Positions 22,820-62,098 of a stretch of 64,000 bases of DNA are shown one piece after another (the stretch's first letter is position 1; the number at the start of each line of letters is the position of its first letter). Under the pieces are notes generated by a model, which made no database searches, was not told the DNA's origin, and saw nothing but the letters and a program-made list of their open reading frames with translations. The stretch lies in the NCBI GenBank assembly GCA_963826115.1, contig CAWGVS010000010.1, forward strand, positions 64,001-128,000, given 5' to 3'. The stretch comes from an uncultured Candidatus Rokubacteria bacterium (GTDB taxonomy: Bacteria > Methylomirabilota > Methylomirabilia > Rokubacteriales > DASRDR01). The translations under genes were made by a program, and so were the position numbers.

Positions 22820-22835
22820 GGGCACGGGTCTTGCT
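22820..22835 (+). promoter_or_regulatory. sigma54 -24/-12 promoter
   Basis: GGGCACGGGTCTTGCT, 14 nt before ATG 22850. Confidence 0.7.
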
Positions 22836-22849
22836 GGGTCCCAGGCCAT

Positions 22850-23833
22850 ATGCGCCTCCTCCGGGTTCTCCCGCTTGCCGGCGGTCTGCTGGCCCTCGTG
22901 CTCGTCGTGCGCCACGTCGGACTCGACGCGCTGACCAGCGCGCTGACCCGCATCGCGTGGTGGCAGTTCGCCCTCGTGTGCCTCGTCAGCGGGCTCACCC
23001 TCGTGCTGGACACGCTCGGCTGGCGCGCCACGCTCGTCACGGAACGCCCACCGTTCCGGAAGCTCCTGGCGGCACGGTGCGCCGGACAAGCCGTGAACGT
23101 CGTCACCGCGCTGGGGGGCCTCGGGGGCGAGGCGACCAAGGCGTGGCTGCTTCGCCGCGAATTGCCCTACGAGGCGAGCGTGCCGTCCCTGATCCTCGCG
23201 AAGACCGCCGAGGTCGTGGGGCAGACGCTCCTCCTCGCCACCGGCATCGCGGTCGCGTGGGCCACCGGCGTCGTCGGCGGAGCGCTCCTCGCCTCGATGT
23301 GCTACCTGCTCCTCGTCGAGGTGATCTGCGTCGGCGGCTTCATCCTGGCCCAGGTGGCCGGCGGCGTCGGTCGGGTCGGTCGGCTCCTGGCCTGGGTGGG
23401 CGCCGGGGCCGGCGCCCGTCGGGTGGACGGCGCCGTGCGGGACTTCTATCGCTCGCACTGGCGGGCGCTCGCCGCGTCGATCGGATACCACTTCGCGAGT
23501 TGGCTCATGGGAACCATCGAGGTGCTCCTCATCCTGTGGAGCCTCCAGGTGCCCGGCTCCCTTCCGACGGCCCTCGTGATCGAGGCGCTCGGGACCGGGG
23601 TGCGCTTCGCCACCTTCTTCGTCCCGGCGAGCCTCGGGACGCTGGAGGGCGCGTACGCCGCCGCCTTCGCCGCTCTCGGATGGGCGTCGGGGGACGGCCT
23701 CGCCTTCAGCCTGGTGCGCCGGGGTCGCCAAGTCGTGTGGATCGGCATCGGACTCGCGGTCCTGGCGGTGCTTGGCGTCGCGCGGGCGACGGCGGACGAG
23801 CCCGCGGAGGCCATGCCCGCCCGCGCCGACTGA
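22850..23833 (+). CDS. Lysylphosphatidylglycerol synthase TM / flippase-like (UPF0104) protein
   Basis: Multi-TM, GGLGGEATKAWLL, FFVPASLGTLEG. Confidence 0.82.
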   Translation: MRLLRVLPLAGGLLALVLVVRHVGLDALTSALTRIAWWQFALVCLVSGLTLVLDTLGWRATLVTERPPFRKLLAARCAGQAVNVVTALGGLGGEATKAWLLRRELPYEASVPSLILAKTAEVVGQTLLLATGIAVAWATGVVGGALLASMCYLLLVEVICVGGFILAQVAGGVGRVGRLLAWVGAGAGARRVDGAVRDFYRSHWRALAASIGYHFASWLMGTIEVLLILWSLQVPGSLPTALVIEALGTGVRFATFFVPASLGTLEGAYAAAFAALGWASGDGLAFSLVRRGRQVVWIGIGLAVLAVLGVARATADEPAEAMPARAD

Positions 23834-23840
23834 GGCGCCG

Positions 23841-24818
23841 TCACGCCACCAGGGCGGGAGCCGGCGGATGATCCGCCACCCGCCGCCCGAGACCTCGCTC
23901 GAGGGCCGCGAGCGCTTCCGGCGAGACGATGACGGGGAGCTGTCGCGGCAGGGCCTCGAGCTCATCGTGAATCGAGCCGCCCGACACCGAGACGCGTCGG
24001 CCACGACCGCGGAAGACGCCGGGCCCCGCGCCCGGGATCCGCAGGTGACGCCGCAGGAGCTTGGCGAACACCCGGCGGCGGCTCGCGGCGCGGATGACGA
24101 ACACGTCCAACAGGCCGTCGAGGGGGGACGCGTCGGGCGTGAGCGGAAGCCATGCGCCGTACGTGTTCACGTTGGCGACGATGACGAGCGCGGCTTCCGT
24201 GGCGACGACGCGACCGTCCACCACGACACGCAGCCGCGCCGGCTGAGTCCCCCGTAGATGGCGGACCGCCGCTCGATAATAGGCGAGCCCGCGCAGCCAC
24301 CGGGACCGCGGCGCGGCGGCGGCCGCCTCGACCGCGGCCTGGACCTCGGCGATCAGGCCGTAGCTCTGCTGGCACAGGAAGAGCTCGCCGTTGCACTGGC
24401 CCACGTCGGCGTGGACGATCCGCCCGCGGGTCAGGAGATCGAGCGCGCCTTCCACGGTCGCCGGATGGTCGAAGGCCTGGGCGAAGAGATTCCCGAAGCC
24501 CGAGGACACGGGCAGGAACGGCACTCCACGGCGGACGGCGGCGAGCGCCGTGGTGCTCTGCGTGCCGTCACCGCCAACGCACACCAGGGCCGAGAAGCGG
24601 CCGCTCTGAGCGGCGGCCCAGCGATGGAGCGTGTCGAGATCCGAGAAGACCTCGAGGCTCGTTCGCCGATGCCGCGCCGCGAGCGCATCGCGGAGCCGGA
24701 GCGCGGTGGTCATGGCGTGGCCGTTGCCGGAGCCCGGCGTGACCACGACCTGTACCGGATGAGGATCGATCGCGCGGGCGCCACGCGTCCGCGACGTCTT
24801 GCGAAGGAGCGTTCTCAT
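23841..24818 (-). CDS. Diacylglycerol kinase-family lipid kinase
   Basis: TPGSG, CVGGDGT, LPVSSGFGNLFA, ANVNTYG, PDASPLDGLLDV. Confidence 0.88.
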   Translation of the reverse strand: MRTLLRKTSRTRGARAIDPHPVQVVVTPGSGNGHAMTTALRLRDALAARHRRTSLEVFSDLDTLHRWAAAQSGRFSALVCVGGDGTQSTTALAAVRRGVPFLPVSSGFGNLFAQAFDHPATVEGALDLLTRGRIVHADVGQCNGELFLCQQSYGLIAEVQAAVEAAAAAPRSRWLRGLAYYRAAVRHLRGTQPARLRVVVDGRVVATEAALVIVANVNTYGAWLPLTPDASPLDGLLDVFVIRAASRRRVFAKLLRRHLRIPGAGPGVFRGRGRRVSVSGGSIHDELEALPRQLPVIVSPEALAALERGLGRRVADHPPAPALVA

Positions 24819-24844
24819 GGCGTCATCCCCTCGGGAGGGGAGCG

Positions 24845-24860
24845 AGCAAGCGAGGTGCCA
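24845..24860 (-). promoter_or_regulatory. sigma54 -24/-12 promoter
   Basis: TGGCACCTCGCTTGCT on the minus strand, upstream of the DAGK gene. Confidence 0.8.
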
Positions 24861-24926: not shown

Positions 24927-24958
24927 CGACGCCATGTCCGCGCGGCGACACGCTGACG
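24927..24958. promoter_or_regulatory. Putative bEBP enhancer (UAS) copy
   Basis: CGACG-CCA-TGTCC-GCGCGG-CGACA-CGC-TGACG. Confidence 0.65.
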
Positions 24959-25777: not shown

Positions 25778-25809
25778 CGTCAGCGTGTCGTTCGCGCGAC
25801 ATCGCGTCG
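25778..25809. promoter_or_regulatory. Putative bEBP enhancer (UAS) copy
   Basis: CGTCA-GCG-TGTCG-TTCGCG-CGACA-TCG-CGTCG. Confidence 0.7.
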
Positions 25810-25862: not shown

Positions 25863-25878
25863 TGGCATGGCGCTTGCG
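25863..25878 (+). promoter_or_regulatory. sigma54 -24/-12 promoter
   Basis: TGGCATGGCGCTTGCG, upstream of ORF 25890, rlpA and mlaC. Confidence 0.75.
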
Positions 25879-25889
25879 ACCACCCGGGC

Positions 25890-26219
25890 ATGATTCGCAT
25901 GAGCTCGAACCAGTCGCGCTCCGGCTCTTCAATGCATGTCCTCCGAATCGCGCCAGCGCCGACGGCGTCTGCGCTCGCGCTGTGCGTCGCCGGTCCGCGG
26001 CGCCGACCGCTTGCGCGGGTGGGCCTCCTCCGTCGCGCTCCGCGCCTCTCGGTCCGAGGCGAGCGGCGGGGGACGGAGTGGCGCGCGATCGCCAACGGGA
26101 TCGGTGGGGCCCTCGACGGCGTCCGGACGGCTCCCGTGGCCGGCGCTCCGCGCGAGTGGTGGCACGCGGAGTCGATCCCGGACGGGTGGCCGTGGGGTCC
26201 CGGCGCCGACTGCGCCTGA
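25890..26219 (+). CDS. Possible hypothetical protein (109 aa)
   Basis: ATG lies at the predicted sigma54 start site and the ORF fills the gap before rlpA. No recognisable domain. Confidence 0.3.
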   Translation: MIRMSSNQSRSGSSMHVLRIAPAPTASALALCVAGPRRRPLARVGLLRRAPRLSVRGERRGTEWRAIANGIGGALDGVRTAPVAGAPREWWHAESIPDGWPWGPGADCA

Positions 26220-26250
26220 CCGATGACACCGTGAGACCGGAGCGGCCGGT

Positions 26251-26676
26251 GTGACGCGTGCTCCGGCGTGCGCCCTCGTCCTGGGGATCCTGGCGCTGTG
26301 CGGGTGCGCGGTCAGCCGGCCGCCGGCGACACCCGTGACGGGCGAGGGTCGCGCGTCCGCGGAGCGCTCGGGCCCGCCGCGCACCGAGGTGGGCCTCGCG
26401 TCCTGGTACGGGGAGTTCCATCACGGTCAGCCGACGGCGTCGGGCGAGGTCTTCGACATGAGTGGGCTCACGGCCGCGCACCGGACCCTCCCGCTCGGCA
26501 CCCGGATCCGCGTGGTGAACGTCGACAACGGCCGGAGCGTCCAAGTGCGTATCAACGACCGGGGGCCGTACGTCGCCGGCCGGATCCTCGACCTGAGCCG
26601 GGGGGCGGCGCGCGCTCTCGACATGGTGGAGCGCGGCGTGGCGTGGGTCCGTGTCGACGTGATCGGGCTGCCGTGA
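26251..26676 (+). CDS. rlpA: RlpA-family lytic transglycosylase lipoprotein
   Basis: Lipobox LCGC, GLASWYG, TAAHRTLPLGT, VRINDRGP, ILDLSRGAA. Confidence 0.92.
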   Translation: MTRAPACALVLGILALCGCAVSRPPATPVTGEGRASAERSGPPRTEVGLASWYGEFHHGQPTASGEVFDMSGLTAAHRTLPLGTRIRVVNVDNGRSVQVRINDRGPYVAGRILDLSRGAARALDMVERGVAWVRVDVIGLP

Positions 26677-26708
26677 CCCGGCGTGCGGGTCGAGGAAGGG
26701 AGAACGAG

Positions 26709-27338
26709 ATGAGACCACGGGCATGGCTGTCCCTGGCGGCGGTCGTCGCGAGCGTGATGATGCTGGGGAGCGTCGCCGCCGCCGGGGTGCCGACCGACCA
26801 GCTGCGCGGCGCGACGGACCGGGTGCTGAAGGTCCTCCAGGACCCGGAGCTCAAGCAGCCGGCCAAGACGGACGCCCGCCGCCAGCAGATCCGCGCCATC
26901 GCGGACGAGATCTTCGACTGGGGGGAGACGGGCAAGCGCGCCCTGGCGCGGCACTGGCAGGGGCGCAACCCGGCCGAGCGCCAGGAGTTCTCGACGCTCT
27001 TCGCGGATCTGATCGAGCGCTCCTACGTCTCGAAGATCGAGCAGTACTCCGGCGAGCGCATCGCCTATGTCGGCGAGACGGTCGAGGGGGACCAGGCCAC
27101 CGTTCGGACGAAGCTCATCACGAAGTCGAACACCGAGATCCCCATCGACTATCGCATGCAGAAGGAGGGCGACCGCTGGCGCGCCTACGACGTCGTGATC
27201 GAGGGCGTCAGCCTGGTCTCGAACTACCGGACGCAGTTCAACCGGATCATCCAGCAGTCGGGCTACGCCGAGCTGGTGAACAAGCTCAAGGCCAAGCAGG
27301 AGGAGCTCCAGTTCGAGGCCGGCCAGGGCAAGGGCTGA
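26709..27338 (+). CDS. mlaC: MlaC/Ttg2D-family phospholipid-binding protein
   Basis: Signal peptide, RALARHW, WRAYDVVIEGVSLVSNYRTQF. Confidence 0.9.
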   Translation: MRPRAWLSLAAVVASVMMLGSVAAAGVPTDQLRGATDRVLKVLQDPELKQPAKTDARRQQIRAIADEIFDWGETGKRALARHWQGRNPAERQEFSTLFADLIERSYVSKIEQYSGERIAYVGETVEGDQATVRTKLITKSNTEIPIDYRMQKEGDRWRAYDVVIEGVSLVSNYRTQFNRIIQQSGYAELVNKLKAKQEELQFEAGQGKG

Positions 27339-27398
27339 GGGGCGCCGGCGGGACCGCGTGATGGAGGCGAGCGCGCGAGCCTCCTCGCAAGACGCGGT

Positions 27399-27818
27399 AT
27401 GACCAGGGCCCAGATCCATTTCATCCGGCAGTACACGCCGGTCCTGAAGGGGCAGGGCGGGGAGGCCTACGTCGCGCGCGCGTACATGGACCGGCAGCCG
27501 GGCGGCCTCTGGGAGGCGTGGCTCGTCTTCTTCTCGCTGCGGACGGGGCGGGCGATCGCCACCGACCGGGAGACCACGCAGGGGAAGCGGGAGCACGTCC
27601 TCTACTGGGCGACGGGCCTGGGCCCCACGTACCTTCAGGGGGCGCTCGAGCGGGCGCTGGTGCTCCAGCCGGAGGCCCAGCTCGCCCGCCGAATCGCGCG
27701 CGCGGAGCGCCAGGAGGCCTACGCCCTGCTCGAGGCGGAGGTCTACGCCGCGGCGACGGCGAGCGCGCTCCGGCGCGCGGCCGCCGCCCGGGATCGCGTG
27801 GTGCGAGGCGCCCGATGA
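27399..27818 (+). CDS. Hypothetical protein (139 aa)
   Basis: Protein-like (WEAWLVF, TDRETTQ, YWATGL..YLQGALERA). ATGA overlap with the next gene. Confidence 0.7.
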   Translation: MTRAQIHFIRQYTPVLKGQGGEAYVARAYMDRQPGGLWEAWLVFFSLRTGRAIATDRETTQGKREHVLYWATGLGPTYLQGALERALVLQPEAQLARRIARAERQEAYALLEAEVYAAATASALRRAAAARDRVVRGAR

Positions 27819-28741
27819 TTCCGCCGGCCGACGGCGGCGTCGAGAGGACGCCAGGCCCCCTCCCGTCGGCGGCGCCGCCAAGCGGGACGGGAGCCGAGCG
27901 CGGCGTGCGGCTCTGGCCTCGGAAGGGCGGCGGCGTGCTGGTGCGTGACGGGGAGGGCACCGGGGACGCGGTCCTCGGGATGCCGACGCAGGGGCAGCAC
28001 GTCGCACAGCTGTACACCGAGCCGGCGGTCCTGGCGCGCGCCGTGGCGCGGTTCGCCGCCGCAGGCCTTCGGTCCGGCGAGGCCGTCCTCCTCGTGGCGA
28101 CGGCCGGTCACCGTCCGGCGATCCTGCGCTGCCTCCGGGCCGTGGGGTACGAGCCCAGCGAGCTCGCGCGCGCCGGGCAGCTCGTCTTCCTGGACGCCGT
28201 CGACACGCTGGGGGCCCTCCTGGCGGACGGCGAGCCGGACCGCGCGCGTTTCCAGGCCGTGATCGGCGGCGCCGTCGACGCGGCCGAGGCCGCCGGCTAT
28301 CCGCGCGTGCGCGCCTTCGGAGAAATGGTGAACGTTCTCCGGCAGGCGCGCTTCGGCGCGGCGCTCCGGCTGGAAGCCCTGTGGGCCGAGCTGATCGCGG
28401 CGCGGCGGATCGCGCTCCTCTGTGGCTACTCCATCGACGCCTTCGATCCCTGGGCCTACGAGGGGGTCCTCCAGCGGGTCACCGCCACCCACTCCCACCT
28501 CGTGCCCGTCGAGGACTACGCCCTCCTCGGTCGGGCCGTCGCCCAGGCATACGGAGAGGTGTTCGGGGTCGGCTACGACGCCGGGCTCCTGCGCCGCATG
28601 TTCCTTGCCCAATACCCGAGGCCGACGGCGATGCCGGACGCGCAGGCGGCGATCCTCGCGGTTCAGGAGTTCGTGCCGGAAGCGGCGGCGGCGCTGCTCG
28701 ACCGGATCCGGCACCACTACCGGATCGCGGCGACGATCTGA
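27815..28741 (+). CDS. Stand-alone MEDS sensory domain protein
   Basis: HVAQLY, GLRSGEAVLLVATAGH, VRAFGEMVNVL, ALRLEALW, LLCGY. Alternative start 27980. Confidence 0.8.
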   Translation: MIPPADGGVERTPGPLPSAAPPSGTGAERGVRLWPRKGGGVLVRDGEGTGDAVLGMPTQGQHVAQLYTEPAVLARAVARFAAAGLRSGEAVLLVATAGHRPAILRCLRAVGYEPSELARAGQLVFLDAVDTLGALLADGEPDRARFQAVIGGAVDAAEAAGYPRVRAFGEMVNVLRQARFGAALRLEALWAELIAARRIALLCGYSIDAFDPWAYEGVLQRVTATHSHLVPVEDYALLGRAVAQAYGEVFGVGYDAGLLRRMFLAQYPRPTAMPDAQAAILAVQEFVPEAAAALLDRIRHHYRIAATI

Positions 28742-28777: not shown

Positions 28778-29140
28778 TCAGGTCAACCGGCCGAGCGGAC
28801 CGAGGTCGAGCTTGAGGTCCTCCAGCGTGAGGCCGAACCGGCGGGCGAGCTCGCGAAGCGCCTTCTCGATCCGCATCAGCGCCAGCCCCACGGCCTCGGT
28901 CTCCGCCGCGGTCAGCGTCCCCTCGTCGAGGCGGCGGATCGCCTGGCGCTCGAGCAGCTGGCGCAGGAAATCGACGAGCGTCAGGACCAGCTGCGCGAGC
29001 GACCGCTGCACGTCGTCGGGATCGGCGTTCCAGCGCGCGGGCGCCGACGCGCGCGTCCGCCGCCGGAGTTCGGCGCGCAGCGCGCGGAGCTCCTTGGCCC
29101 GCACCGCCTTCACGCTCACCCGGCGGCGCTTCGCGGTCAT
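28778..29140 (-). CDS. gvpK: Gas vesicle protein GvpK
   Basis: LAQLVLTLVDFLRQLLERQAIRR...DLKLDLGPLG. Confidence 0.92.
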   Translation of the reverse strand: MTAKRRRVSVKAVRAKELRALRAELRRRTRASAPARWNADPDDVQRSLAQLVLTLVDFLRQLLERQAIRRLDEGTLTAAETEAVGLALMRIEKALRELARRFGLTLEDLKLDLGPLGRLT

Positions 29141-29823
29141 GGGTCGACTCCGAACGCGTATGGCGGCCACGGTCCGCTGATCGTGAGGCGGAGGGGGGCG
29201 AGCTGCCGGGCCGCCTGGCTCACGCGTGTCCGGTACTGCGCGCGGCGCTCGCGCGGTACCAGGTGGTAGACGCTCGCGAGGAGCGGTGGGGTCCGGTGGC
29301 GCTGGACGCGCTCCTCAACCACGAGATCGCCGAGGAGCGGGCGGATCGGGTCGAGCTCGGGCGCCGCGGCCGGGTCGTGGCGGCGACGCTGTGCCGCGAG
29401 GTATCGGGTCCCGGGGCCCGCGGCGGCGGCCCTGGCCTTCCGGGCGGGTGGGGCATCCGGCGTGGTGGCGGCGGGGACGCCGAACACGCGGAGGGTCATC
29501 TGCTCGTGCCCGCGCACCCGGTCGAGCCGCGCCAGAAGCTCGGGCGCGCGAGTCGCGAGGATGCGGGTCGCGGTCGCCGCGTCGGGGACCACGGAGGCGA
29601 AGCGGATCGGCAGGAGGGCGTCCACGGTCGCGGCGATACGCCGGACCACGGCGTCGTGGCGCCGGAGGGTCGTCGCCGTGGGGTCCGGGGCGGTGGCCAT
29701 CCGGCCCGCGACGATCTGGAATCCCGGGCCCGGGAGGACCTCGAGGGCCTCGCGGCGGAGCCCGCGTCCCGCGTCGCCCCGCGGCGGGGTCCCGATCAGC
29801 GCGTAGAGGTAGAGGACGCTCAC
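29137..29823 (-). CDS. GvpL/GvpF-family protein
   Basis: LYLYA, HDAVV..LLPIRF, SGPWPPYAF. GTGA/ATGA coupling. Confidence 0.88.
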   Translation of the reverse strand: MSVLYLYALIGTPPRGDAGRGLRREALEVLPGPGFQIVAGRMATAPDPTATTLRRHDAVVRRIAATVDALLPIRFASVVPDAATATRILATRAPELLARLDRVRGHEQMTLRVFGVPAATTPDAPPARKARAAAAGPGTRYLAAQRRRHDPAAAPELDPIRPLLGDLVVEERVQRHRTPPLLASVYHLVPRERRAQYRTRVSQAARQLAPLRLTISGPWPPYAFGVDP

Positions 29824-30065
29824 CGCCGGCCCGTTCGCGACGTCAGGCGGTCCACGGCGCACAGGAGCACCGAGAGGCGCAGGTAGACGAGGTCCACGTC
29901 GGCGAGCGCGAGGACGACGTCCCCCGACACGACCACGCCCTTGGTCAGCACGTGGTCGACGATGTCGAGGAGCGACGCGTTCGCCTCGGCGTCCCGCGGA
30001 GCGGCGCGCCGCTTCCGCGGCCGCCTCTTCAGAGGCGGCCGGCCACGAAGCTGTACGGAGGCCAT
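29820..30065 (-). CDS. GvpA-family accessory protein (GvpS/M-like)
   Basis: SLLDIVDHVLTKGVVVSGDVVLALADVDLVYLRLSVLL. Confidence 0.85.
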   Translation of the reverse strand: MASVQLRGRPPLKRRPRKRRAAPRDAEANASLLDIVDHVLTKGVVVSGDVVLALADVDLVYLRLSVLLCAVDRLTSRTGRR

Positions 30066-30859: not shown

Positions 30860-30895
30860 GTGCGGGTCATGGCCGGCGCGCGCCGCCGGGTCGCC

Positions 30896-32193: not shown

Positions 32194-32200
32194 CGCGCCG

Positions 32201-34798: not shown

Positions 34799-34801
34799 GC
34801 G

Positions 34802-35158: not shown

Positions 35159-35161
35159 CGC

Positions 35162-41276: not shown

Positions 41277-41293
41277 CGGGGAGAGCGCCGACG

Positions 41294-49531: not shown

Positions 49532-49574
49532 CGCCACCATGTCGTGCGCGCGCCGCCGTGTCATGCGCGAGACG
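49532..49574. promoter_or_regulatory. Putative bEBP enhancer (UAS) copy next to the kinase/bEBP operon
   Basis: CGCCA-CCA-TGTCG-TGCGCG-CGCCG-CCG-TGTCA-TGCGCG-AGACG. Confidence 0.62.
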
Positions 49575-52439: not shown

Positions 52440-52455
52440 TGGCACGGGCCTTGCT
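52440..52455 (+). promoter_or_regulatory. sigma54 -24/-12 promoter
   Basis: TGGCACGGGCCTTGCT right after the bEBP stop, 12 nt before ATG 52468. Confidence 0.82.
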
Positions 52456-52908: not shown

Positions 52909-52919
52909 CGGTCGCTTCC

Positions 52920-54615: not shown

Positions 54616-55054
54616 GGGTCCCGAACCGCGCCGGGACGTCCGGGCCGCCGGCGAACTCGCCCGTCAGCTGATCACCGGACTCCAGCGTCAGCACCAGCGC
54701 GCCCCCGCCGACCAGGTCGAAGAAGAGCCCCGAACGGGTGAGGCGTCCCTCGCGGCGGACGGTGTCCGCGACGCCGCCGTCGACGAAGGTGACGTGGGCC
54801 ACCACCGTCGACGTCCCGACTTCTGGCGCGATGATTACCTCCGCAGCCCCGTTCCGTCCGCTGTCGCCCGCGACCCACCGCCCGGTCCAGGCCCCGCCCA
54901 GGCGGGCCGCGGCCTCGGGCGCCCCGCTGGCGGCGGCGGAGCGCGACCCGGCGGGCCCGACTTCCGCGAGGGCCGCCAGCAGGACGACCGCGGCCACGGC
55001 CAGGAGGCGGCCGGTGCGGAGCACGACCGTGGTCCCACCCCCTCGCGCCATCAT
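54587..55054 (-). CDS. Secreted hypothetical protein
   Basis: Signal-like hydrophobic N-terminus, LGGAWTGRW beta domain. Confidence 0.6.
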   Translation of the reverse strand: MMARGGGTTVVLRTGRLLAVAAVVLLAALAEVGPAGSRSAAASGAPEAAARLGGAWTGRWVAGDSGRNGAAEVIIAPEVGTSTVVAHVTFVDGGVADTVRREGRLTRSGLFFDLVGGGALVLTLESGDQLTGEFAGGPDVPARFGTLTLSRRARG

Positions 55055-55683
55055 TGCCCCTTCCGGTGGCCCTTCTTGACGTGCTGCTTCATGACGGTGC
55101 GCGCGGCCACCTCCGCGGCGCGCCCGCCGTAGCGTCCCTCCCGCTGGGCCGCTTCCTTGATGTGCTCGTACTGCCGCTGCTCCTTGGTTCCAACGCCGCG
55201 CAGATGCCGCCGTTCGGGCATGGACCGATCCTCCCGTGTCGAGGCCGTGTTCTCGAGATCGATCAGGGCCAGCCTGGACGCGGGGTCGTAGCGCCGCTGG
55301 AGGTGTCCGGGCGGCTGGATCAGGATCACCTCGAGCGTCGGCCGGACGCGCGCCGCGAGGAGGTGCCCTCCGTGGGCGCTTCCGTCACGCTTGCCGACGA
55401 CCACGTGCGCGTGGACCTTCGGGGCCGAGCCCTCGAGGGCCACGTCCCCGACCAGGGACAGGACCTCGACCTGCTCGTCGATCGCGATCCGCACGTAGTC
55501 CTTGCGCGTCCAGTCGAAATAGCCGAGGGTCGCGGCCTCGAAGGCGCCGATCGCCGTGAAGTGGCCGGCCCTGAGACCTTCCCGCATCGCGAAGTCGAGG
55601 AGGCCCTGCATCGGCTCCTCGCCCGTGTCGAACACCAGCGCGATCGTGCGGGCTGCACCGGCGTGGAGGACCTTCGCGTTCAT
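55051..55683 (-). CDS. PPC/DUF296 domain protein fused in frame to a small basic helical domain
   Basis: FTAIGAF, EVLSLVGDV, KVHAHVVVG, GGHL, VRPTLEV. The C-terminal KEQRQYEHIKE...AARTVMK domain has its own RBS and ATG at 55221. Confidence 0.85.
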   Translation of the reverse strand: MNAKVLHAGAARTIALVFDTGEEPMQGLLDFAMREGLRAGHFTAIGAFEAATLGYFDWTRKDYVRIAIDEQVEVLSLVGDVALEGSAPKVHAHVVVGKRDGSAHGGHLLAARVRPTLEVILIQPPGHLQRRYDPASRLALIDLENTASTREDRSMPERRHLRGVGTKEQRQYEHIKEAAQREGRYGGRAAEVAARTVMKQHVKKGHRKGQ

Positions 55684-55744
55684 GGCGCGTTCATGGCGGG
55701 CCGCGCGACCCCGCGCGGGGAGATCGCTCCGCGCGGGGCAGAGC

Positions 55745-55993
55745 TCACGCGGCCCCGGTGAGGCCCGTCTCGCTCGCCAGGAGCTCCCGCACGACCCACA
55801 GCCGGCCGCACGTGCCGCAGAGCACCCCGGGGCCCAGGCGACGCGTCACGAGGCCGTTGCAGTTGGGGCAGCGATCGCTGACGTCGCTGGTGCGATCGTA
55901 GGTGACACGGGCGTCAGACCAGCGCCGAGCCCGCTGGAGCAGCGTGTCTCGGCCGAACTCCTCGGAATGACGGGGACGCCGCTGGCGTGGCAT
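55745..55993 (-). CDS. Small Zn-ribbon protein
   Basis: AGGAG RBS, CPNC...CGTC. Downstream of a sigma54 box. Confidence 0.6.
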   Translation of the reverse strand: MPRQRRPRHSEEFGRDTLLQRARRWSDARVTYDRTSDVSDRCPNCNGLVTRRLGPGVLCGTCGRLWVVRELLASETGLTGAA

Positions 55994-56052: not shown

Positions 56053-56068
56053 AGCAAGCTCTGTGCCG
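56053..56068 (-). promoter_or_regulatory. sigma54 -24/-12 promoter
   Basis: CGGCACAGAGCTTGCT (minus strand). Confidence 0.75.
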
Positions 56069-56133: not shown

Positions 56134-56165
56134 GGACACGCTGTCGCCTTCCGGACACCGTGTCG
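56134..56165. promoter_or_regulatory. Putative bEBP enhancer (UAS) copy
   Basis: GGACA-CGC-TGTCG-CCTTCC-GGACA-CCG-TGTCG. Confidence 0.72.
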
Positions 56166-56241: not shown

Positions 56242-56667
56242 TCAGGCGGCCTCGAGGGAGATGTCGCGCGGGGACTCCCGAGCGGGGACCAGGGACTCGC
56301 GCCGGGCGCGGCGCTCGGCTTCTCCCTGGCAGTCCCGGCAGCGCTGGGCGAACGGGAGCGCGCGGAGGCGCGGCACCCCGATGAAGCCGTCGCACTCCTG
56401 GCAGAAGCCGTACCGTCCCTCGGACAGCCGCACGAGCGCGTCCTGGATCTGCACGACCTGCCGAGTGCGCCGGTCCATCAGGGCGACCTGGATCTCCGTG
56501 TGGAGGGTCTCCGCGGCGTGGACGGATATGTCGGTCAGACTCGTGCTCTCCGTGGTCCGGCTCTCGGAGACCACGGCGCGAAGAGACCCCTGCAGCCGTG
56601 CCAGCTCGGTTTCCAGGAATCCTTCGAGCTCGCCGATGATGCGCCGGTCCAGCTTCGTTGGGCTCAT
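56242..56667 (-). CDS. TraR/DksA C4-type zinc-finger protein
   Basis: IQDALVRLSEGRYGFCQEC..IGVPRLRALPFAQRCRDCQ. RBS AAGGAG. Confidence 0.88.
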   Translation of the reverse strand: MSPTKLDRRIIGELEGFLETELARLQGSLRAVVSESRTTESTSLTDISVHAAETLHTEIQVALMDRRTRQVVQIQDALVRLSEGRYGFCQECDGFIGVPRLRALPFAQRCRDCQGEAERRARRESLVPARESPRDISLEAA

Positions 56668-57188
56668 GCCATGCTCCTTCCGCCCGCGTCCTGAGCGGGC
56701 ATGCGATCGGAGGCCGGCCGTCGGGCCGGCGCCCCTCCCGGGCCGCCGAGAAACGCCTCGACCGCGCCTGTCAGGGCGGGCAGGACGGCCCGCTCGAGGG
56801 CGTCGGCGACGTCGTCGATGATGCGATTCACGAGACCCTCGACGCGGCCGCCCAGCCGTTCCCACGAGGCTGACGCCATGGTGGGCCCGGAGCCGCCCGC
56901 CTCCAGGCGCGCCGGGATGCGAGTGACCGCCTCCCGCCCCGCCGCCGCGACCCAGGGCCCGGCGTCCCGCTCGCTCTCGATCTCCCGGGCGAGACGTCGG
57001 CCGACCGCGGCGCCGAGGAGCACCGCGCCCAGCAGGCTCGAGACGGGGTAGCGCTCGACGTAGGTCTGCCACTGCATCGCGTCACCCGCCTTCCCGCGCA
57101 GCGCGCTCGCGGTTCGTGAGATGGAAGCCCGCGTCGCGTCGATGTCGCGACGCAGATCCTCGATGTCTACGCTCCGTGCCGGATCCAT
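56664..57188 (-). CDS. DUF3618-like protein
   Basis: DLRRDIDATRASISRT..L, then YVERYP plus a TM helix. Confidence 0.7.
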   Translation of the reverse strand: MDPARSVDIEDLRRDIDATRASISRTASALRGKAGDAMQWQTYVERYPVSSLLGAVLLGAAVGRRLAREIESERDAGPWVAAAGREAVTRIPARLEAGGSGPTMASASWERLGGRVEGLVNRIIDDVADALERAVLPALTGAVEAFLGGPGGAPARRPASDRMPAQDAGGRSMA

Positions 57189-57559
57189 TCCGCATCCTTC
57201 CGCAGCTCGCGACGGGTTTCCTCGGCGAGCCGCTGGTGTTGGAGCCGCCGCACCGCCAGCGCGCCGGCGCCCACACCGAGGATCCCCAGGCCCGCGCCCA
57301 CGAGGGCAAAGCCCTCCGGCGCCGACCCGACGAGCTCGCCGACCCACAGCCCCACGCCGAGCAGGAGAAAGGCCAGGCCCACGCTCGCCGCGAGGGCGCC
57401 GACCGTCAGCAGGCCTGCCGTCCTCGCGAGCGCCACGGCATCCCTCGCGAGCTCGGCCTTCAGGAGCGCGAGTCGCTGGTCGACCAGGCGCCCGACATCG
57501 GCAAGAAGCCGGAGCCCGAGCTCCGCGAAGCTCGCCGACTGACCGTTCCGGTGGATCAC
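57167..57559 (-). CDS. Phage_holin_3_6 (YqjE/DUF1469)-like membrane protein
   Basis: LLADVGRLVDQRLALLKAEL, 2 TM, ETRRELRKDAEWI. Confidence 0.8.
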   Translation of the reverse strand: MIHRNGQSASFAELGLRLLADVGRLVDQRLALLKAELARDAVALARTAGLLTVGALAASVGLAFLLLGVGLWVGELVGSAPEGFALVGAGLGILGVGAGALAVRRLQHQRLAEETRRELRKDAEWIRHGA

Positions 57560-57586
57560 CGGCGGGCCTCGCGCGTTCGCCCGCGC

Positions 57587-57970
57587 CTAGCGCCGGCCCG
57601 CGGAGCTCAGCCAGCCGAGCACGAGCCCGGCACCGGCGGCGATGCAAAGGGCCGTCACGGGCTGCTGGCGCGTGTACCCGACGACGTCGTGCCGCACCTT
57701 CTCCATGCCGCCGTCCCGGTATTCGGCGACCTTGTCACGGGCCTGCTGCACCGCGTCGCCCAGGTACTCCCGGGCGCCGTCGACGTAATCCTTGGTCTGC
57801 TGGATCGTGTCCTGGACGTACTCCTTCGCCTCGGCGGCGTAGTCCCTCATCTCGCGCCCGGATTCCTGAGCGCACTGTCGTGTCGTGTCGGCGAAGTCGC
57901 GCGCCTCAGACTTGGCCCACTCGCCCATCGATTCGTGTGCGATGCCATCCCAGCGAACGCGGTCTTCCAT
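57587..57970 (-). CDS. DUF883/ElaB-YqjD-like tail-anchored protein with LEA-like helical repeats
   Basis: Amphipathic repeats (AKEYVQD/TKDYVDG/AREYLGD), C-terminal YTRQQP..IAAGAGLVLGWL..RR. RBS GGAGG. Confidence 0.8.
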   Translation of the reverse strand: MEDRVRWDGIAHESMGEWAKSEARDFADTTRQCAQESGREMRDYAAEAKEYVQDTIQQTKDYVDGAREYLGDAVQQARDKVAEYRDGGMEKVRHDVVGYTRQQPVTALCIAAGAGLVLGWLSSAGRR

Positions 57971-58011: not shown

Positions 58012-58027
58012 AGCAAGTCATGTGCCA
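58012..58027 (-). promoter_or_regulatory. sigma54 -24/-12 promoter
   Basis: TGGCACATGACTTGCT (minus strand). Confidence 0.82.
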
Positions 58028-58112: not shown

Positions 58113-58144
58113 CGTCACCGCGTCGTGCGCCCGACAGCGTGGCA
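58113..58144. promoter_or_regulatory. Putative bEBP enhancer (UAS) copy
   Basis: CGTCA-CCG-CGTCG-TGCGCC-CGACA-GCG-TGGCA, between divergent sigma54 boxes. Confidence 0.58.
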
Positions 58145-58210: not shown

Positions 58211-58226
58211 AGGCACATGCCTTGCA
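58211..58226 (+). promoter_or_regulatory. sigma54 -24/-12 promoter
   Basis: AGGCACATGCCTTGCA. Confidence 0.78.
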
Positions 58227-58286: not shown

Positions 58287-58568
58287 ATGAACACGAAGAA
58301 GCCGACCGATAAGCCCATCGAGCGCCGGCCCGACGACTCGATCGACCAGCGTCAGGGACCGTACGATCCGGCGAGGCCGGGCAGCCCGGGTCAGTCCGAG
58401 GCGTCCGAGGGTCGGAAGGACGTCGGGAAGCCGGAAGGCCGTTCGCCGGGCAAGCCGGCCTCCAAGCCCGGCGAGCGCGGCCCTGGCCAGGATGGGCGGA
58501 GCGACCGGGACGCGGGACGCCCGGTGCAGCTGGACGACCGCCGCGAGGACGAGTCGGCCCTGCGCTGA
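58287..58568 (+). CDS. Hydrophilic, probably disordered 93-aa protein (hydrophilin-like)
   Basis: AAGGAGG RBS. Rich in G/P/D/E/K/R with almost no hydrophobic residues. Confidence 0.75.
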   Translation: MNTKKPTDKPIERRPDDSIDQRQGPYDPARPGSPGQSEASEGRKDVGKPEGRSPGKPASKPGERGPGQDGRSDRDAGRPVQLDDRREDESALR

Positions 58569-58647: not shown

Positions 58648-58800
58648 TCAGACCCGTCCGGTGAGGAACAGGACCAGGACGACGAGCAGCACGACGCCCA
58701 GCGTCCCGCTCGGATAGTAGCCCCAGCCGCTGCTGTATGGCCACGCCGGCAACGCTCCGACGAGCAGCAGAATCAGCAGGACGAGAAGGATGGTTGGCAA
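58648..58800 (-). CDS. DUF3309-family small membrane protein (50 aa)
   Basis: GGAGGTG RBS, TTG start. TILLVLLILLLVGALPAWPYSSGWGYYPSGTLGVVLLVVLVLFLTGRV. Confidence 0.88.
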   Translation of the reverse strand: MPTILLVLLILLLVGALPAWPYSSGWGYYPSGTLGVVLLVVLVLFLTGRV

Positions 58801-58881
58801 CGCTCTTATCACCTCCCTCGGTGAGACTTCGCGGGCGAGGCCGCCCCGGCGGCCGGCCGGGACGACCTCCCCCGATCCGCG

Positions 58882-59187
58882 CTACTGGATCTTGATGTTG
58901 TTGACGACGTCGTTGACGCCCGACACCTCGCGGGCGAGCTGCGTGGCGCGCGCCTTGATGGTCTCGCTCTCGACGTTGCCCGTGAGGTAGACGGTGCCCT
59001 TGTTGGTGTCGACGTCGACCTTGGTCAGGGTCGACGGTTTCTCGGCCGCGAGCTTGCTCTTCACCGTGGCCGTGATCTTCGCGTCGTCCACGTTCTCCCC
59101 GGCCGATTTGCCGGTCATCGACGTGCAGCCGGCGGTGAACGCCATCAGCAGCGTCAGCACCAGCATGGAGCGGAGCAGGTATCGCAT
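58882..59187 (-). CDS. BON-domain (OsmY-like) lipoprotein
   Basis: Lipobox TAGC, DDAKITATVKSKL, VDVDTNKGTVYLTG, VSGVNDVVNNI. Confidence 0.92.
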   Translation of the reverse strand: MRYLLRSMLVLTLLMAFTAGCTSMTGKSAGENVDDAKITATVKSKLAAEKPSTLTKVDVDTNKGTVYLTGNVESETIKARATQLAREVSGVNDVVNNIKIQ

Positions 59188-59226
59188 TGGTCAGCCCCTC
59201 CTTTTGGTGTCCTGGTCGTTGAGGCG

Positions 59227-59469
59227 CTACGGCCGCGGTGTGCCGGCCCGCTCCGACGGGGCCATCGCCGCGTCGATCTCGCGCAGCCGGCGCGCCACCT
59301 CGTCCTCCGCGTCGCGCCTGGCCCAGCCGTACTTCTCCTGCAGCTTGCCGACGAGCTTGTCGCGCTTTCCCGCGATCACGTCGAAGTCGTCGTCGGTGAG
59401 CTTGCCCCACCACTCCTTCACCTGGCCACGCATCTGCTTCCACTTGCCTTCCACGATGTCCGTGTTCAT
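59227..59469 (-). CDS. csbD: CsbD-family general stress protein
   Basis: MNTDIVEGKWKQMRGQVKEWWGKLTDDD..IAGKRDKLVGKLQEKYG. RBS AAGGAGG. Confidence 0.93.
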   Translation of the reverse strand: MNTDIVEGKWKQMRGQVKEWWGKLTDDDFDVIAGKRDKLVGKLQEKYGWARRDAEDEVARRLREIDAAMAPSERAGTPRP

Positions 59470-59538: not shown

Positions 59539-59554
59539 AGCAACAAGGCTGCCT
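59539..59554 (-). promoter_or_regulatory. sigma54 -24/-12 promoter (csbD-BON-DUF3309)
   Basis: AGGCAGCCTTGTTGCT (minus strand). Confidence 0.65.
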
Positions 59555-59665: not shown

Positions 59666-59697
59666 TGTCATGGTGGCGTCGAGGCGACACCCTGACG
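59666..59697. promoter_or_regulatory. Putative bEBP enhancer (UAS) copy
   Basis: TGTCA-TGG-TGGCG-TCGAGG-CGACA-CCC-TGACG. Confidence 0.55.
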
Positions 59698-59725: not shown

Positions 59726-59741
59726 TGGCACTGCCCTCGCT
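59726..59741 (+). promoter_or_regulatory. Possible sigma54 promoter (weaker -12)
   Basis: TGGCACTGCCCTCGCT. Confidence 0.45.
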
Positions 59742-59830
59742 CCATCGACGGAAAAAGCCCGCGTGGGCAGAGGGAGACACCGATGCGAGGGCCTTGGAGG
59801 GACACGTCGATCGCGCGAGGCAGGCACCCC

Positions 59831-59971
59831 ATGATCGCGCCCGTCGCGCGCGCCGCCACCCAGGACGCGCGGGAATCCACGACTCTCACCGCGGCCGTGG
59901 TGGGCTTCGTCGTTGCCCTCGTGACCTCGGTGGGCGTGTCGGTCGCGTGCGTCGCCTATCTGCACTGGTAG
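59831..59971 (+). CDS. Possible 46-aa single-TM microprotein
   Basis: MIAPVARAATQDARESTTLTAAVVGFVVALVTSVGVSVACVAYLHW. Alternative start 59783. Confidence 0.4.
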   Translation: MIAPVARAATQDARESTTLTAAVVGFVVALVTSVGVSVACVAYLHW

Positions 59972-60041: not shown

Positions 60042-61913
60042 TCAGCGTGCCGAGGCAAGCTCGATTGCGTCGGGCGTGGCCGCGCGCTGCAGCGGCGCCA
60101 GCTCCTGTAGCTGCGCGCATGCCTCGGCGAGCGTGGTCGTCACCCGATCGGCGCCCGCCGTGACCATGGCCTGACGCGCGCTCTCGTCACCGCCGTCGAC
60201 GCCCCACCATCCCACGACGATCGGCAGGTCCGGAAAGCGTGCCCGGAGACGCTTGCACAGGTGTCGGAGGTGCAGGGGATGGCCCGCGCCGGCCAGCGCG
60301 CCGATCACGACCGCGACGGGCGTCTCCTCCTCGACGCGCGTGACGGCCTCGCTGACCAGGAGGTCGGGTGACGCGATGCTCACCGCGAACCGTGTCGGGT
60401 CGAGGCGCTGCTTCAGCATGAGAAGCGCGACCTCGTCCGCCTCTTCCTGGGCGGGCAGCCCGAGAATGGACGTGGCGGGCCGCGTCGGCGGCTCGGCCAG
60501 GGACGCCGGCAGCTCGAGGTCCTCGACGATCTGACGGGTCACGCGCTCGACGTAGCGCACGTCCTCGTCCGTGATTCGGCCGCGCTCGTGGTCGCGCCGC
60601 GCGTGACTCAGGGCAGGCACGAGGACCTCGTCGAAGACGTCGTGGCCGGCCTGTGCGGCGACGTACTCCTGGACCAGGGCCGCGCCCTCGTTCTCGTCCC
60701 GGGCCACGAGCCGCTGGTAGTAGCTCCGGGCGGGTCCCATGACCGGCTCGTCCGACATGAGCACGGACAGGATCTCGAGGTCGGGGATGTACTTGGCGAG
60801 GACGACGAGGCAGACGGTGAGCGGCGTCGCCAGCGCCAGCCCGACGGCGCCCCACACCCAGGTCCAGAAGGCGACTGCCAGCAGGAGCGCGACCTGGGAG
60901 ACGCCCGCGCTCTGGCTGTAGAAGTACGGCTCCAGGATGAAGCCGGTGAAGACCTCCAGCCCGACGAAGAGCCCGGCGATCAGAATGGGCTGGAGCCAGC
61001 CATCGAAGACGGCCAGCCCCGCCAGCGATACCAAGAGCGCGCCCACCCAGGGGCCGACGTACGGGATGAACCGGAGGACCCCGGCCAGCGCGCCCCAGAG
61101 GAAGGCGTACGGAAGACCGATCACGAGCGCGCCGACCGTCACCCCGAGCCCGAAGGCGCCATTGATCAGGCACTGGCGCGTCAGGTAGTGGGTGATCCGC
61201 TGGGCGGCCTCGTCCATGGCCTTGGTGGTGGTGGCGATCCGACCGAACCCGATGACCCGGATCACGCGGTCCCGGAGCTGGAGCCGCTCCAGGAGCATGA
61301 AGATCACGAGGACCAGCACGAGACCGACGTTTGCCAGCGCCTCCAGCAGGACCGGCAGCGACCACAGCGTCGACGACGGTGACTTCACGACCACCGGCAC
61401 CGGCTTGTCGGCCGGCTTGACGGGCTTGTCCTCCTTCTGGAGCTCCTCGACCACCTCCTTGGTGGCCGTCTGCACCTTCTCGATGACGCTCCCGCGGCTG
61501 GCGCCGCGGATCGCGGCGATCTTCTGCTTGAGATGGTCGCGGTAGATCGGGATCTCCTCGCCGAGCCCGGCGGCCTGCAGTCCCACCGCCCACGCGAAGA
61601 CGCCCAGCGCGGAGAACGCCAGGAGCACCACCAGGATCACGGCGACCACGCGCGGCAACCATCGCTCGAACGAGCGGACGATCGGGTTCAGGACGAAGGT
61701 GAGGAGGCTGGCGACCGCGACGGGGACCAGGAACACCCGCCCGAGATAGAGCGCGCCCACCGTCATGAGGACACCGGCGAGCAGGATGACGGGGCGGACG
61801 CCGCGGAGATTCGCCTGGGGCGAACGCGAGCTCCGGGCATGGGACCCCGGCGCCGGATCCCTGGCGACATTCCCGAGCGTGGGGTAACCCGAGATCGAGC
61901 GCGTGTCCGTCAC
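60042..61913 (-). CDS. AI-2E family transporter with C-terminal cytoplasmic (B12-binding-like) domain
   Basis: LRDRVIR, LRFIPYVGP, ALATPLTVCLVV, YYQRLVARD, FDEVLVPAL, RLRARFPDLPIVVGWW. GTG 61913 in frame. Confidence 0.88.
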   Translation of the reverse strand: MTDTRSISGYPTLGNVARDPAPGSHARSSRSPQANLRGVRPVILLAGVLMTVGALYLGRVFLVPVAVASLLTFVLNPIVRSFERWLPRVVAVILVVLLAFSALGVFAWAVGLQAAGLGEEIPIYRDHLKQKIAAIRGASRGSVIEKVQTATKEVVEELQKEDKPVKPADKPVPVVVKSPSSTLWSLPVLLEALANVGLVLVLVIFMLLERLQLRDRVIRVIGFGRIATTTKAMDEAAQRITHYLTRQCLINGAFGLGVTVGALVIGLPYAFLWGALAGVLRFIPYVGPWVGALLVSLAGLAVFDGWLQPILIAGLFVGLEVFTGFILEPYFYSQSAGVSQVALLLAVAFWTWVWGAVGLALATPLTVCLVVLAKYIPDLEILSVLMSDEPVMGPARSYYQRLVARDENEGAALVQEYVAAQAGHDVFDEVLVPALSHARRDHERGRITDEDVRYVERVTRQIVEDLELPASLAEPPTRPATSILGLPAQEEADEVALLMLKQRLDPTRFAVSIASPDLLVSEAVTRVEEETPVAVVIGALAGAGHPLHLRHLCKRLRARFPDLPIVVGWWGVDGGDESARQAMVTAGADRVTTTLAEACAQLQELAPLQRAATPDAIELASAR

Positions 61914-61926
61914 TCGCGTGCATCGG

Positions 61927-61942
61927 TGCGAAACGCATGCCG
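61927..61942 (-). promoter_or_regulatory. Probable sigma54 promoter
   Basis: CGGCATGCGTTTCGCA (minus strand), 13 nt before GTG 61913. Confidence 0.55.
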
Positions 61943-61995
61943 GCCGCTTTCTAGCCCTTGGCCGCGGTCCACGCGACGCGAATGTCGCCGATTCG

Positions 61996-62027
61996 CGTCG
62001 TCGTGTCGCCACCACGACACCGTGGCG
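61996..62027. promoter_or_regulatory. Putative bEBP enhancer (UAS) copy
   Basis: CGTCG-TCG-TGTCG-CCACCA-CGACA-CCG-TGGCG, centred between divergent sigma54 boxes. Confidence 0.68.
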
Positions 62028-62082
62028 CTCACTCGCTCGCGGGAACGCGCGGGATATCCCGGAACCGACGTTGCGCCGGCGG

Positions 62083-62098
62083 CGGCACAGGGATTGCC
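62083..62098 (+). promoter_or_regulatory. sigma54 -24/-12 promoter
   Basis: CGGCACAGGGATTGCC. Confidence 0.72.

Follow-up and report, generated by a model that had tools for sequence, protein, structure and literature searches.

A putative sigma-54 regulon of about 20 transcription units clustered around its own two-component pair in a Rokubacteria chromosome

Can a protective programme of the kind usually found under a general stress sigma factor be governed by sigma-54 and a single enhancer-binding protein? General stress responses are normally attributed to alternative factors of the sigma-70 family. The question is raised by a stretch of about 40 kb in an uncultured soil bacterium of the Candidatus Rokubacteria (phylum Methylomirabilota; contig CAWGVS010000010.1), lying in a window of 64,000 nt with 72.8% GC, to whose positions coordinates given without a locus name refer. 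The original prediction placed some 19 -24/-12 boxes between 22820 and 62098, each intergenic and aimed at the adjacent gene, with a HAMP kinase and a GAFTGA-containing activator (49595-52437) in their midst, and proposed that a desiccation and general stress response is wired to them. The analysis reported here, which rests on sequence comparison, leads us to think it probable that this chromosomal cluster of about 20 transcription units is one sigma-54 regulon under the central two-component pair, with a protective or dormancy output.

The boxes far exceed what base composition would give. Counted on both strands, the strict core GGCAY-N5-TTGC has 16 matches in the window, whereas 100 dinucleotide-preserving shuffles averaged 0.46 and never gave more than 2. 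Fourteen of these matches are boxes of the original prediction, and the remaining two are 11726+ and 48633+, the latter antisense within gene 47921-48952. The window was also scanned with the sigma-54 consensus TGGCAC-N5-TTGCW, taken from general knowledge and not derived by a tool, GG and GC being held fixed and 11 positions scored. At 10/11 or better there are 12 matches, compared to a simulated mean of 0.39 (maximum 3), and all 12 are predicted boxes; at 9/11 or better there are 23, compared to 7.4 expected, and 18 of them are predicted boxes, the five others being 24370+, 26944+, 51625+ and 53587+, all intragenic, and 49350+. All 19 boxes have the form GG-N10-GC; 12 match the consensus at 10/11 or better, six at 9/11 and one at 8/11. 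Five can be called weaker (37681-, 48965-, 59539-, 59726+ and 61927-), the weakest being 61927-, with 8/11 and TCGC as its -12 element; 48965- and 59539- are still conserved at orthologous loci.

The placement of the boxes is as consistent as their sequence. All 19 fall in non-coding DNA or at the 5' ends of genes and are directed at the adjacent gene, in a window that rough gene calls make about 88% coding and 12% non-coding. Genes were called with a codon-position likelihood caller, a GC3-based caller tried first having proved too noisy; families were assigned with Pfam and with NCBIfam and its curated cut-offs, and operon ends were deduced from gene spacing only. The statement that the first 22 kb contain no box was nearly right, except for the single strict core at 11726+ (11725-11739). 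This match lies outside the island, 3' of an animal-haem-peroxidase-like gene (8832-11609), has no enhancer and faces an uncertain target open reading frame (ORF); it may be a promoter that answers to another activator, or chance.

For practical purposes, the idea that these motifs cluster by chance, through the composition of a 73% GC genome or as copies of a dispersed repeat element is refuted. A loose promoter scan allowing two mismatches gives no enrichment (45 matches against 39.8 expected), which would suit such an artefact, although a scan of this looseness is uninformative. The strict core count of 16 against 0.46, unequalled in 100 shuffles, argues against it, as do the consistent orientation and non-coding placement of the boxes, their retention across species amid drifting DNA, and the repeat search of the window, in which no repeat unit longer than the enhancer described below carries boxes. 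Nor is the cluster a mobile genomic island. No tRNA gene, GC shift or skew break accompanies it, and it is therefore taken to be native.

The conservation of the boxes was followed in contigs of metagenome-assembled genomes (MAGs) found by scanning species-representative genomes with the kinase. Twelve comparison loci were obtained, L001 (80%) and L002 (77%) from other uncultured Candidatus Rokubacteria, and L003-L012 (35 to 46%) from Methylomirabilota/Binatia MAGs. Further relatives of the kinase occur among soil metagenome proteins (94% to 64% identity) and in Candidatus Rokuibacteriota (about 50%). Synteny covers window positions 40.7-61.9 kb for L002 and 49.6-59.5 kb for L001. In these two loci identity is 91% for the activator and 54 to 88% for the neighbouring proteins. 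Boxes stand at orthologous positions in eight of the nine cases covered by L002 and in six of the seven covered by L001, the exception being 59726+, and the enhancers are conserved there as well. In two intergenic alignments the mean column identity is 67 to 69%, and blocks of full identity coincide with boxes, dyads, ribosome-binding sites and start codons. Over the stretch compared, the expectation that the boxes would be kept upstream of orthologous genes is borne out.

A sigma-54 promoter is only half of the wiring, and the other half was sought as a shared element upstream of the boxes. K-mers in the 240 bp upstream of them were compared with random window segments, and the excess pointed to a dyad. 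The predicted enhancer consists of two 13-bp inverted repeats, CGACA-N3-TGTCG, with a spacing of exactly 19 bp, and all 12 copies lie within the island. Searched as CGACACNGTGTCG with at most two mismatches, the dyad gives 27 matches against 9.1 expected, a number reached by none of 100 shuffles; CGACANNNTGTCG with at most one mismatch gives 18 against 3.7 expected, none of them before 24.9 kb, 14 lying in promoter regions and 4 within genes. A palindrome, TGTCGCGCGACA, which also came out of the k-mer enrichment, was discarded: taken alone it gives 12 matches for 11.2 expected, and it is the flank of the real dyad. Among the ten pairs of sites lying 14 to 45 bp apart, nine are spaced by exactly 19 bp and one by 18 bp, compared to a single pair at 19 bp in 68 unrelated loci of the same scan (1.04 Mb) used as a control. 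A de novo repeat search, given no prior input, recovers the same enhancer family as D1 and D2. With a position weight matrix (PWM) of the tandem, the scores of the 12 window matches range from 20.8 to 42, where the null does not exceed 17.5. They are circular for nine of the 12, because these sites were used to train the matrix; the three that were not (49532, 37720 and 59666) score 20.8 to 26.9, and each is upstream of boxes.

A tandem precedes 15 of the 19 boxes, 54 to 256 bp upstream of the -12 element. The promoters of the gas-vesicle operon (tandem 36053) and the Pup ligase gene (tandem 37720) are among these 15, and five tandems each lie between two divergent promoters. The predicted sites therefore have the form looked for in such enhancers, paired dyads at a stereotyped distance upstream of -24/-12 elements. 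The distance from the centre of the tandem to the C of the -12 element clusters at about 84, 96, 106, 116, 127 and 141 bp, in classes about 11 bp apart; the distances were taken from window positions 24927-62027 together with L001, L002, L003, L005, L007 and L009. A Rayleigh test with a period of 11 gives p ~6e-5 for 29 pairs, a value that counts non-independent orthologues and follows the trial of several periods; for the window alone p is ~0.02. Helical phasing of enhancer to promoter is suggestive only. Orthologous promoters are sometimes shifted by one distance class, as a face-of-helix constraint would predict.

What, then, would bind these sites? The gene at 51070..52437 (+) encodes a protein with a receiver (PF00072), an AAA+ domain (PF00158, 1e-70) and an HTH_8 domain (PF02954), and its translation contains Asp53, the GAFTGA and LTDLVM motifs and the Walker A sequence GDSGSGKE, which is the make-up of an NtrC-type (group I) enhancer-binding protein. 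Its nearest solved chains are 4l4u (1e-107), 1ny5 and ZraR 1ojl, Aquifex NtrC4/NtrC1 being among the nearest. It is the sole enhancer-binding protein that family searches found in the 64 kb. Immediately upstream, 49595..51073 (+) encodes a sensor histidine kinase whose order is transmembrane helix, alpha/beta sensor domain, transmembrane helix, HAMP, HisKA and HATPase. The structural model (mean predicted local distance difference test, pLDDT, 75.5) has two long membrane-spanning helices around the sensor domain, then HAMP, HisKA and HATPase; the sensor domain itself has no family match. The kinase and the activator are thus where the original prediction put them, with the domains and motifs it named. 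The arrangement resembles NtrBC, ZraSR, AtoSC and Aquifex NtrC4/NtrC1, in which the same receiver, GAFTGA-bearing AAA+ and HTH_8 domains go with an adjacent kinase gene; tandem inverted-repeat sites at some 80 to 140 bp before a -24/-12 promoter are a further common feature. It differs from them in that the activator reaches no equivalog cut-off and the sensor domain matches no family, and in that its targets would be some 20 protective operons lying together instead of genes for nitrogen, zinc or acetoacetate.

One could suppose that the boxes are real and that the tandem is bound by a regulator encoded elsewhere, another enhancer-binding protein or a repressor, the local pair controlling its immediate neighbours only. 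Box 52440+, which directly follows the activator gene and has no tandem in the window, would agree with this, as would the failure of the activator to match any named equivalog. We regard the idea as quite improbable in view of the ten distant loci, where the genes in common with the window are essentially the kinase, the activator and the receiver, with a GlgX match in addition in L003. Six of the ten (L003 and L005-L009) have one or two tandems, spaced by 19 to 20 bp, adjoining those genes, usually with a -24/-12-like box facing either the receiver gene or a divergent one. The tandem therefore co-localises with orthologues of the pair in the near absence of any other common gene, and the activator is the only DNA-binding protein that these loci share. 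Its recognition helix, SVRTLQR, is kept in all readable orthologues and differs in L012 and in the paralogue of L011. The lack of any other enhancer-binding protein in the 64 kb argues in the same direction. The wiring of the cluster to one activator, as originally proposed, is thus supported at the level of sequence, by the tandem at 15 of 19 promoters and by its presence beside the kinase-activator orthologues of distant genomes.

The receiver gene is the recurrent target of a box and enhancer in L003, L005 and L007-L010. This recurrence suggests a putative ancestral feedback core, to which lineage-specific targets, such as the solute-binding protein of L007, would have been added.

A second alternative is that the cluster is composite, the local activator driving the 15 tandem promoters while 22820+, 40231-, 40252+ and 52440+, for which no tandem is recognised within 320 bp, answer to other enhancer-binding proteins, so that several signals are integrated. 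The island does encode further signalling proteins, namely a PAS kinase and a receiver in the gas-vesicle operon and a MEDS protein. Enhancers, however, can act from a distance or from downstream; an orphan tandem, 39396..39427, lies about 830 bp from the back-to-back enhancerless boxes 40231- and 40252+; and in distant loci the receiver gene, orthologue of the target of 52440+, does carry a tandem. We consider the composite arrangement rather unlikely.

Several observations nonetheless count against a single regulon of protective genes under the local pair, beginning with the four enhancerless boxes and the circular scores already mentioned. Within 320 bp of the orphan tandem (PWM 26.5) there is no -24/-12 box. 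The activator scores below every NCBIfam equivalog cut-off, whether for AtoC (454.9 bits for a cut-off of 714), NtrC (430 for 559), ZraR (408 for 760), GlrR or the PEP-CTERM regulator PrsR (429.5 for 502.6). The comparison of box conservation extends only from 40.7 to 61.9 kb of the window. Four distant loci (L004, L010, L011 and L012) have no tandem spaced by 19-20 bp at up to two mismatches per site; L011 has one pair with an 18-bp spacing and L010 single sites only, near the boxes that precede its receiver. The neighbours of the tandem in distant relatives include unrelated genes, such as that of a solute-binding protein in L007, so the link between the activator family and stress genes is not a general one. 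The rpoN gene is not in the window. On the side of the output, the ElaB/YqjD match is sub-threshold (E ~0.01), and the stress label comes from family names while several targets have no family.

The distance between box and start codon deserves separate mention. At eight of the 19 boxes (22820+, 25863+, 37681-, 37783+, 40252+, 48965-, 52440+ and 61927-) an in-frame ATG or GTG lies 11 to 14 nt after the 16-mer, with no Shine-Dalgarno-like site; ten of the other 11 have such a site further downstream according to the scan. The spacing from box to start codon is kept at the orthologous promoters L001 3842+, L002 12762+ and 8889-, and L003 8459+. Since the start codon stands at the expected sigma-54 transcription start, the mRNAs of these eight predicted promoters look leaderless.

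The promoters can now be set against the genes they face. At the centre, box 48965..48980 (-, 9/11, TGGAAT; counterpart L002 8889-), with an ATG 12 nt downstream in both genomes, has the best-scoring tandem (49092..49123, PWM 42.0), conserved at L002 8980 and L001 60. The operon it would drive (42389..48952, -) encodes a sugar-phosphate nucleotidyltransferase (47921-48952), GlgX (45771-47924), TreY (42820-45774) and, as last gene of this trehalose operon, an EncFtn-like encapsulin-associated ferritin (42389-42775; TIGR04535, 135.9 bits for a cut-off of 125). TreY and GlgX reach equivalog level in NCBIfam; family searches found no TreZ in the window, and no encapsulin shell gene was found there either. 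Box 49441..49456 (-, 11/11; counterparts L001 844- and L002 9766-) precedes the gene of an 80-residue zinc-ribbon-like protein with a CxxC...CxxC pattern (49170..49412, -), and tandem 49532..49563 (non-training, PWM 26.9) lies between this box and the start of the kinase gene. Downstream of the activator gene, box 52440..52455 (+, 11/11; counterparts L001 3842+ and L002 12762+; no enhancer found) has an ATG 12 nt away in all three genomes and leads into 52468..54615 (+), with a single-domain receiver (52468-52908), an NTP_transf_5-like protein (53043-53882) and a metallophosphoesterase (53860-54615).

To the right of the pair, 54587..55993 (-) encodes a small zinc-ribbon-like protein (55745-55993), a PCC-domain protein (55051-55683) and an unassigned product (54587-55024) behind box 56053..56068 (-, 10/11; counterparts L001 7346- and L002 16280-) and its tandem 56134..56165 (conserved at L001 7440 and L002 16363). 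Box 58012..58027 (-, 11/11; counterparts L001 9761- and L002 18547-) precedes the operon 56242..57970 (-), composed of the sub-threshold ElaB/YqjD-like gene (57587-57970), a PF07332 membrane protein (57167-57559), an unassigned gene (56664-57077) and a DksA/TraR zinc finger protein (56242-56667). Tandem 58113..58144 (conserved at L001 9841 and L002 18628) is common to this box and to the divergent box 58211..58226 (+, 10/11; counterparts L001 9948+ and L002 18757+), directed at a 93-residue hydrophilin-like protein (58287..58568, +; grand average of hydropathy -1.85, 13% Gly, 42% charged). CsbD (59227-59469), a BON protein (58882-59187) and DUF3309 (58648-58800) follow in 58648..59469 (-), downstream of box 59539..59554 (-, 9/11, AGGCAG; counterparts L001 11410- and L002 20159-). 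Tandem 59666..59697 (non-training, PWM 20.8; counterparts L001 11540 and L002 20285) separates it from box 59726..59741 (+, 10/11, -12 element TCGC), which has no counterpart of at least 9/11 in L001 or L002 and faces a 62-residue protein with one predicted membrane helix (59783..59971, +). At the right end, tandem 61996..62027 is common to boxes 61927..61942 (-, 8/11, -12 element TCGC, GTG 13 nt downstream) and 62083..62098 (+, 9/11, strict core). The former is aimed at an AI-2E family transporter fused to a B12-binding_2 domain (60042..61913, -), one of two such transporters in the window, the other being 19207-20292 (-); the B12-binding_2 domain is C-terminal in the island copy. The latter leads to 62131..63998 (+), where a 25-codon ORF with a good Shine-Dalgarno site is followed by a shift of the codon-position signal to 62198-62542 (so that 62131-62542 is either frameshifted or two small genes), and then by a type I phosphodiesterase-like gene that runs past the window edge.

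The left part of the island begins with box 22820..22835 (+, 10/11; no enhancer found), whose ATG is 14 nt downstream, in front of an LPG_synthase_TM/HpnL-like, flippase-like membrane protein (22850..23833, +, family match). A YegS/DAGK-type lipid kinase (23841..24818, -, family match) is served by box 24845..24860 (-, 11/11) and tandem 24927..24958. Tandem 25778..25809 and box 25863..25878 (+, 9/11, strict core) precede a putative operon (25890..28741, +) made of a doubtful ORF (25890-26219), an RlpA-like DPBB protein (26335-26676), MlaC (26754-27338), an unassigned gene (27399-27818) and a MEDS/RsbA-like protein (27905-28741). Rfam gives no match in the window, hence no known RNA lies 3' of the boxes that are followed by doubtful ORFs. 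Box 40231..40246 (-, 11/11) faces a Gly-rich membrane protein (39446..40186, -; no family above threshold), back to back with box 40252..40267 (+, 9/11), whose GTG lies 13 nt downstream and whose target is a membrane protein with no assigned family (40281..40721, +). Box 42048..42063 (-, 10/11; counterpart L002 1430-), with tandem 42130..42161, precedes an M48 peptidase (41294-42037) and PsiE (40749-41276) in 40749..42037 (-), both by family match.

Within this left part also lie the gas-vesicle and Pup ligase promoters, to which the original prediction had extended the regulon; both carry the tandem, in agreement with that extension. Box 35812..35827 (-, 10/11), upstream of gvpA, has its tandem (36053..36084) about 255 bp upstream of the -12 element. 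The operon (28778..35551, -) encodes two copies of gvpA (35162-35551 and 34802-35158), a frameshifted PAS histidine kinase (32653-34798), a receiver (32201-32656) and then, in order, gvpF/L, gvpG, gvpF/L, a small GvpA-family protein, gvpF/L and gvpK. The frame of the PAS kinase gene (-) breaks near 33560, between the PAS region and HisKA, and its downstream part has no start codon, which points to a true frameshift in the gene or to an indel of the assembly. Tandem 37720..37751 (non-training, PWM 21.1) is common to the divergent boxes 37681..37696 (-, 10/11, TGGCAA) and 37783..37798 (+, 9/11, strict core). The first stands 13 nt before the GTG of an MscS-like membrane protein of 514 residues (36123..37667, -), assigned through the Atlas (0.99 to clusters with 42 to 83% PF00924 members). 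The second stands 14 nt before the ATG of a predicted Pup-protein ligase, PafA (37813..39165, +), an equivalog (TIGR03686, 562.8 bits for a cut-off of 551.3) behind its own predicted sigma-54 box. In the window, no Pup-like ORF ending in GGQ or GGE was found, nor were Dop, Mpa or proteasome genes; a 55-residue ORF (39182-39349), considered as Pup, is not Pup-like.

Outside the island, the first 22 kb encode at 2311-11609 (+) a GMC oxidoreductase, a weak DyP-like match and the animal-haem-peroxidase-like protein, then a 1334-residue TPR protein. No boxes or enhancers were found on these oxidative-enzyme and TPR genes.

What the regulon is for has to be read from its genes. The regulons of RpoS, SigB and EcfG-PhyR include CsbD/YjbJ, BON/OsmY, ElaB/YqjD-like proteins, trehalose synthesis, ferritin-like proteins, PsiE, the M48 protease and MscS-like channels, and the gene content of the island overlaps with them. 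The list of stress genes first proposed stands for TreY, GlgX, CsbD, BON and the MscS-like protein; it has to be amended for ElaB/YqjD, which is below threshold, and for the ferritins, of which the island has one, not several. The difference from those systems lies in the control, here a predicted sigma-54 holoenzyme with an ATP-dependent activator, and in the physical clustering of the genes. Family searches find no RpoS, SigB or EcfG-type sigma factor encoded in the window, and the only match related to partner switching is the RsbA-like one of the MEDS protein, which is weak (40 bits for a cut-off of 210). Judged by a sigma factor of these families or by partner-switching control, the window does not hold a general stress response of the RpoS, SigB or EcfG type. 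We infer that the output is a protective or dormancy programme comparable in content to those responses.

The regulon may also be real and its trigger something other than general stress or desiccation, either the differentiation of resting cells or a limitation of oxygen or nutrients combined with buoyancy control. The gas vesicles, PafA, the DksA-like factor and the lipid-remodelling genes would fit such a trigger, and the kinase sensor domain, matching no family, is compatible with it. Moreover, in Serratia sp. ATCC 39006 (Serratia 39006), oxygen status and cell density are reported to influence the gas vesicles that depend on sigma-54 and GvrA (PMC4982088). This possibility is a serious one that we think unlikely on balance: TreY, GlgX, CsbD, BON, the hydrophilin-like and MscS-like proteins and EncFtn are classic genes of osmotic stress, desiccation or stationary phase, and the two readings overlap.

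If the cluster is one regulon under the local pair, activation could proceed as follows. Some extracytoplasmic signal, for which drying, osmotic stress, starvation and oxygen are candidates, would reach the alpha/beta sensor domain of the membrane kinase 49595-51073, which would phosphorylate Asp53 of the GAFTGA activator 51070-52437. Activator dimers would fill the two inverted repeats and assemble an active AAA+ ring; through DNA looping the ring would meet the sigma-54 holoenzyme in its closed complex and, by hydrolysing ATP, open the promoter. The sigma-54-driven receiver 52468-52908 might feed back as a phosphate sink or an adaptor. The output would comprise trehalose made from glucans, small hydrophilic and membrane-anchored stress proteins, the MscS-like channel, EncFtn and the M48 protease, as well as lipid remodelling, a DksA-like factor, gas vesicles and pupylation.

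Some elements of this picture have been described before. PspF and ZraR are stress-linked sigma-54 activators that respond to envelope stress. In Myxococcus xanthus, a starvation and resistance programme is served by Nla28, which binds tandem repeats and acts directly on at least 12 sigma-54 promoters (PMC9765219); a single NtrC-like activator governs many sigma-54 promoters through tandem repeats there, as proposed here. The Nla28 sites are given as 8-bp direct repeats and its promoters as mostly intragenic and dispersed, whereas the present sites are 13-bp inverted repeats with a fixed 19-bp spacing, the promoters are intergenic and all fall within about 40 kb, and the phylum is another one. 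The gvpA1 operon of Serratia depends on sigma-54 and GvrA (PMC4982088) and shares with ours a gvpA-first order, a predicted sigma-54 promoter, an NtrC-like regulator and a kinase and receiver within the gvp cluster; GvrA is dedicated to gas vesicles and encoded inside that cluster, whereas in the present island the activator gene is 14 kb away and the gvp operon would be one target among about 20. DVU3305 of Desulfovibrio vulgaris, for which the source uses the words 'general stress response', is listed with two operons, DVU3302-3298 and DVU3303-3305 (PMC4641369). DVU3305, PspF and ZraR are likewise sigma-54-dependent stress regulators, but of one to few operons, and none is known to have an island of 19 promoters. 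Large starvation regulons driven by one activator, and gas vesicles driven by sigma-54, are therefore already precedented, and the original suggestion that the architecture is undescribed holds in part, given the partial precedents of Nla28, GvrA and DVU3305. The literature search returned nothing linking Rokubacteria to sigma-54 or gas vesicles, and nothing relevant for CsbD with RpoN and an enhancer-binding protein or in broader stress and desiccation searches; a paper on desiccation in P. putida was set aside as a precedent, rpoN being only a reference gene there. What appears to be new is the predicted placing of RpoS-like content under a sigma-54 activator, the gathering of about 20 units in about 40 kb, the fixed dyad grammar and the phylum.

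A broader proposal, tentative and somewhat doubtful as it stands, is that in Rokubacteria sigma-54 and a single enhancer-binding protein would form the master switch of stress and dormancy, in the role held elsewhere by RpoS, SigB or EcfG, with the whole regulon, gas vesicles and pupylation included, in one block of about 40 kb; its promoters would follow a fixed, helically phased grammar and often give leaderless transcripts, and a core of kinase, activator and receiver with feedback would be ancestral across Methylomirabilota.

If this were true, trehalose synthesis, hydrophilins, channels, gas vesicles and pupylation would be under a sigma-54 switch that is gated by ATP and has practically no basal leak, and another evolutionary route to the same physiology would have been taken in an abundant, uncultured soil phylum known only from genomes. 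The box together with the tandem dyad at 19-bp spacing is a signature by which the regulon can be searched for across Methylomirabilota MAGs, and E. coli could serve as test host for the compact set of promoters, activator and kinase, with no need to culture the bacterium itself. Metatranscriptomes of soil drying and rewetting would become directly interpretable for this lineage.

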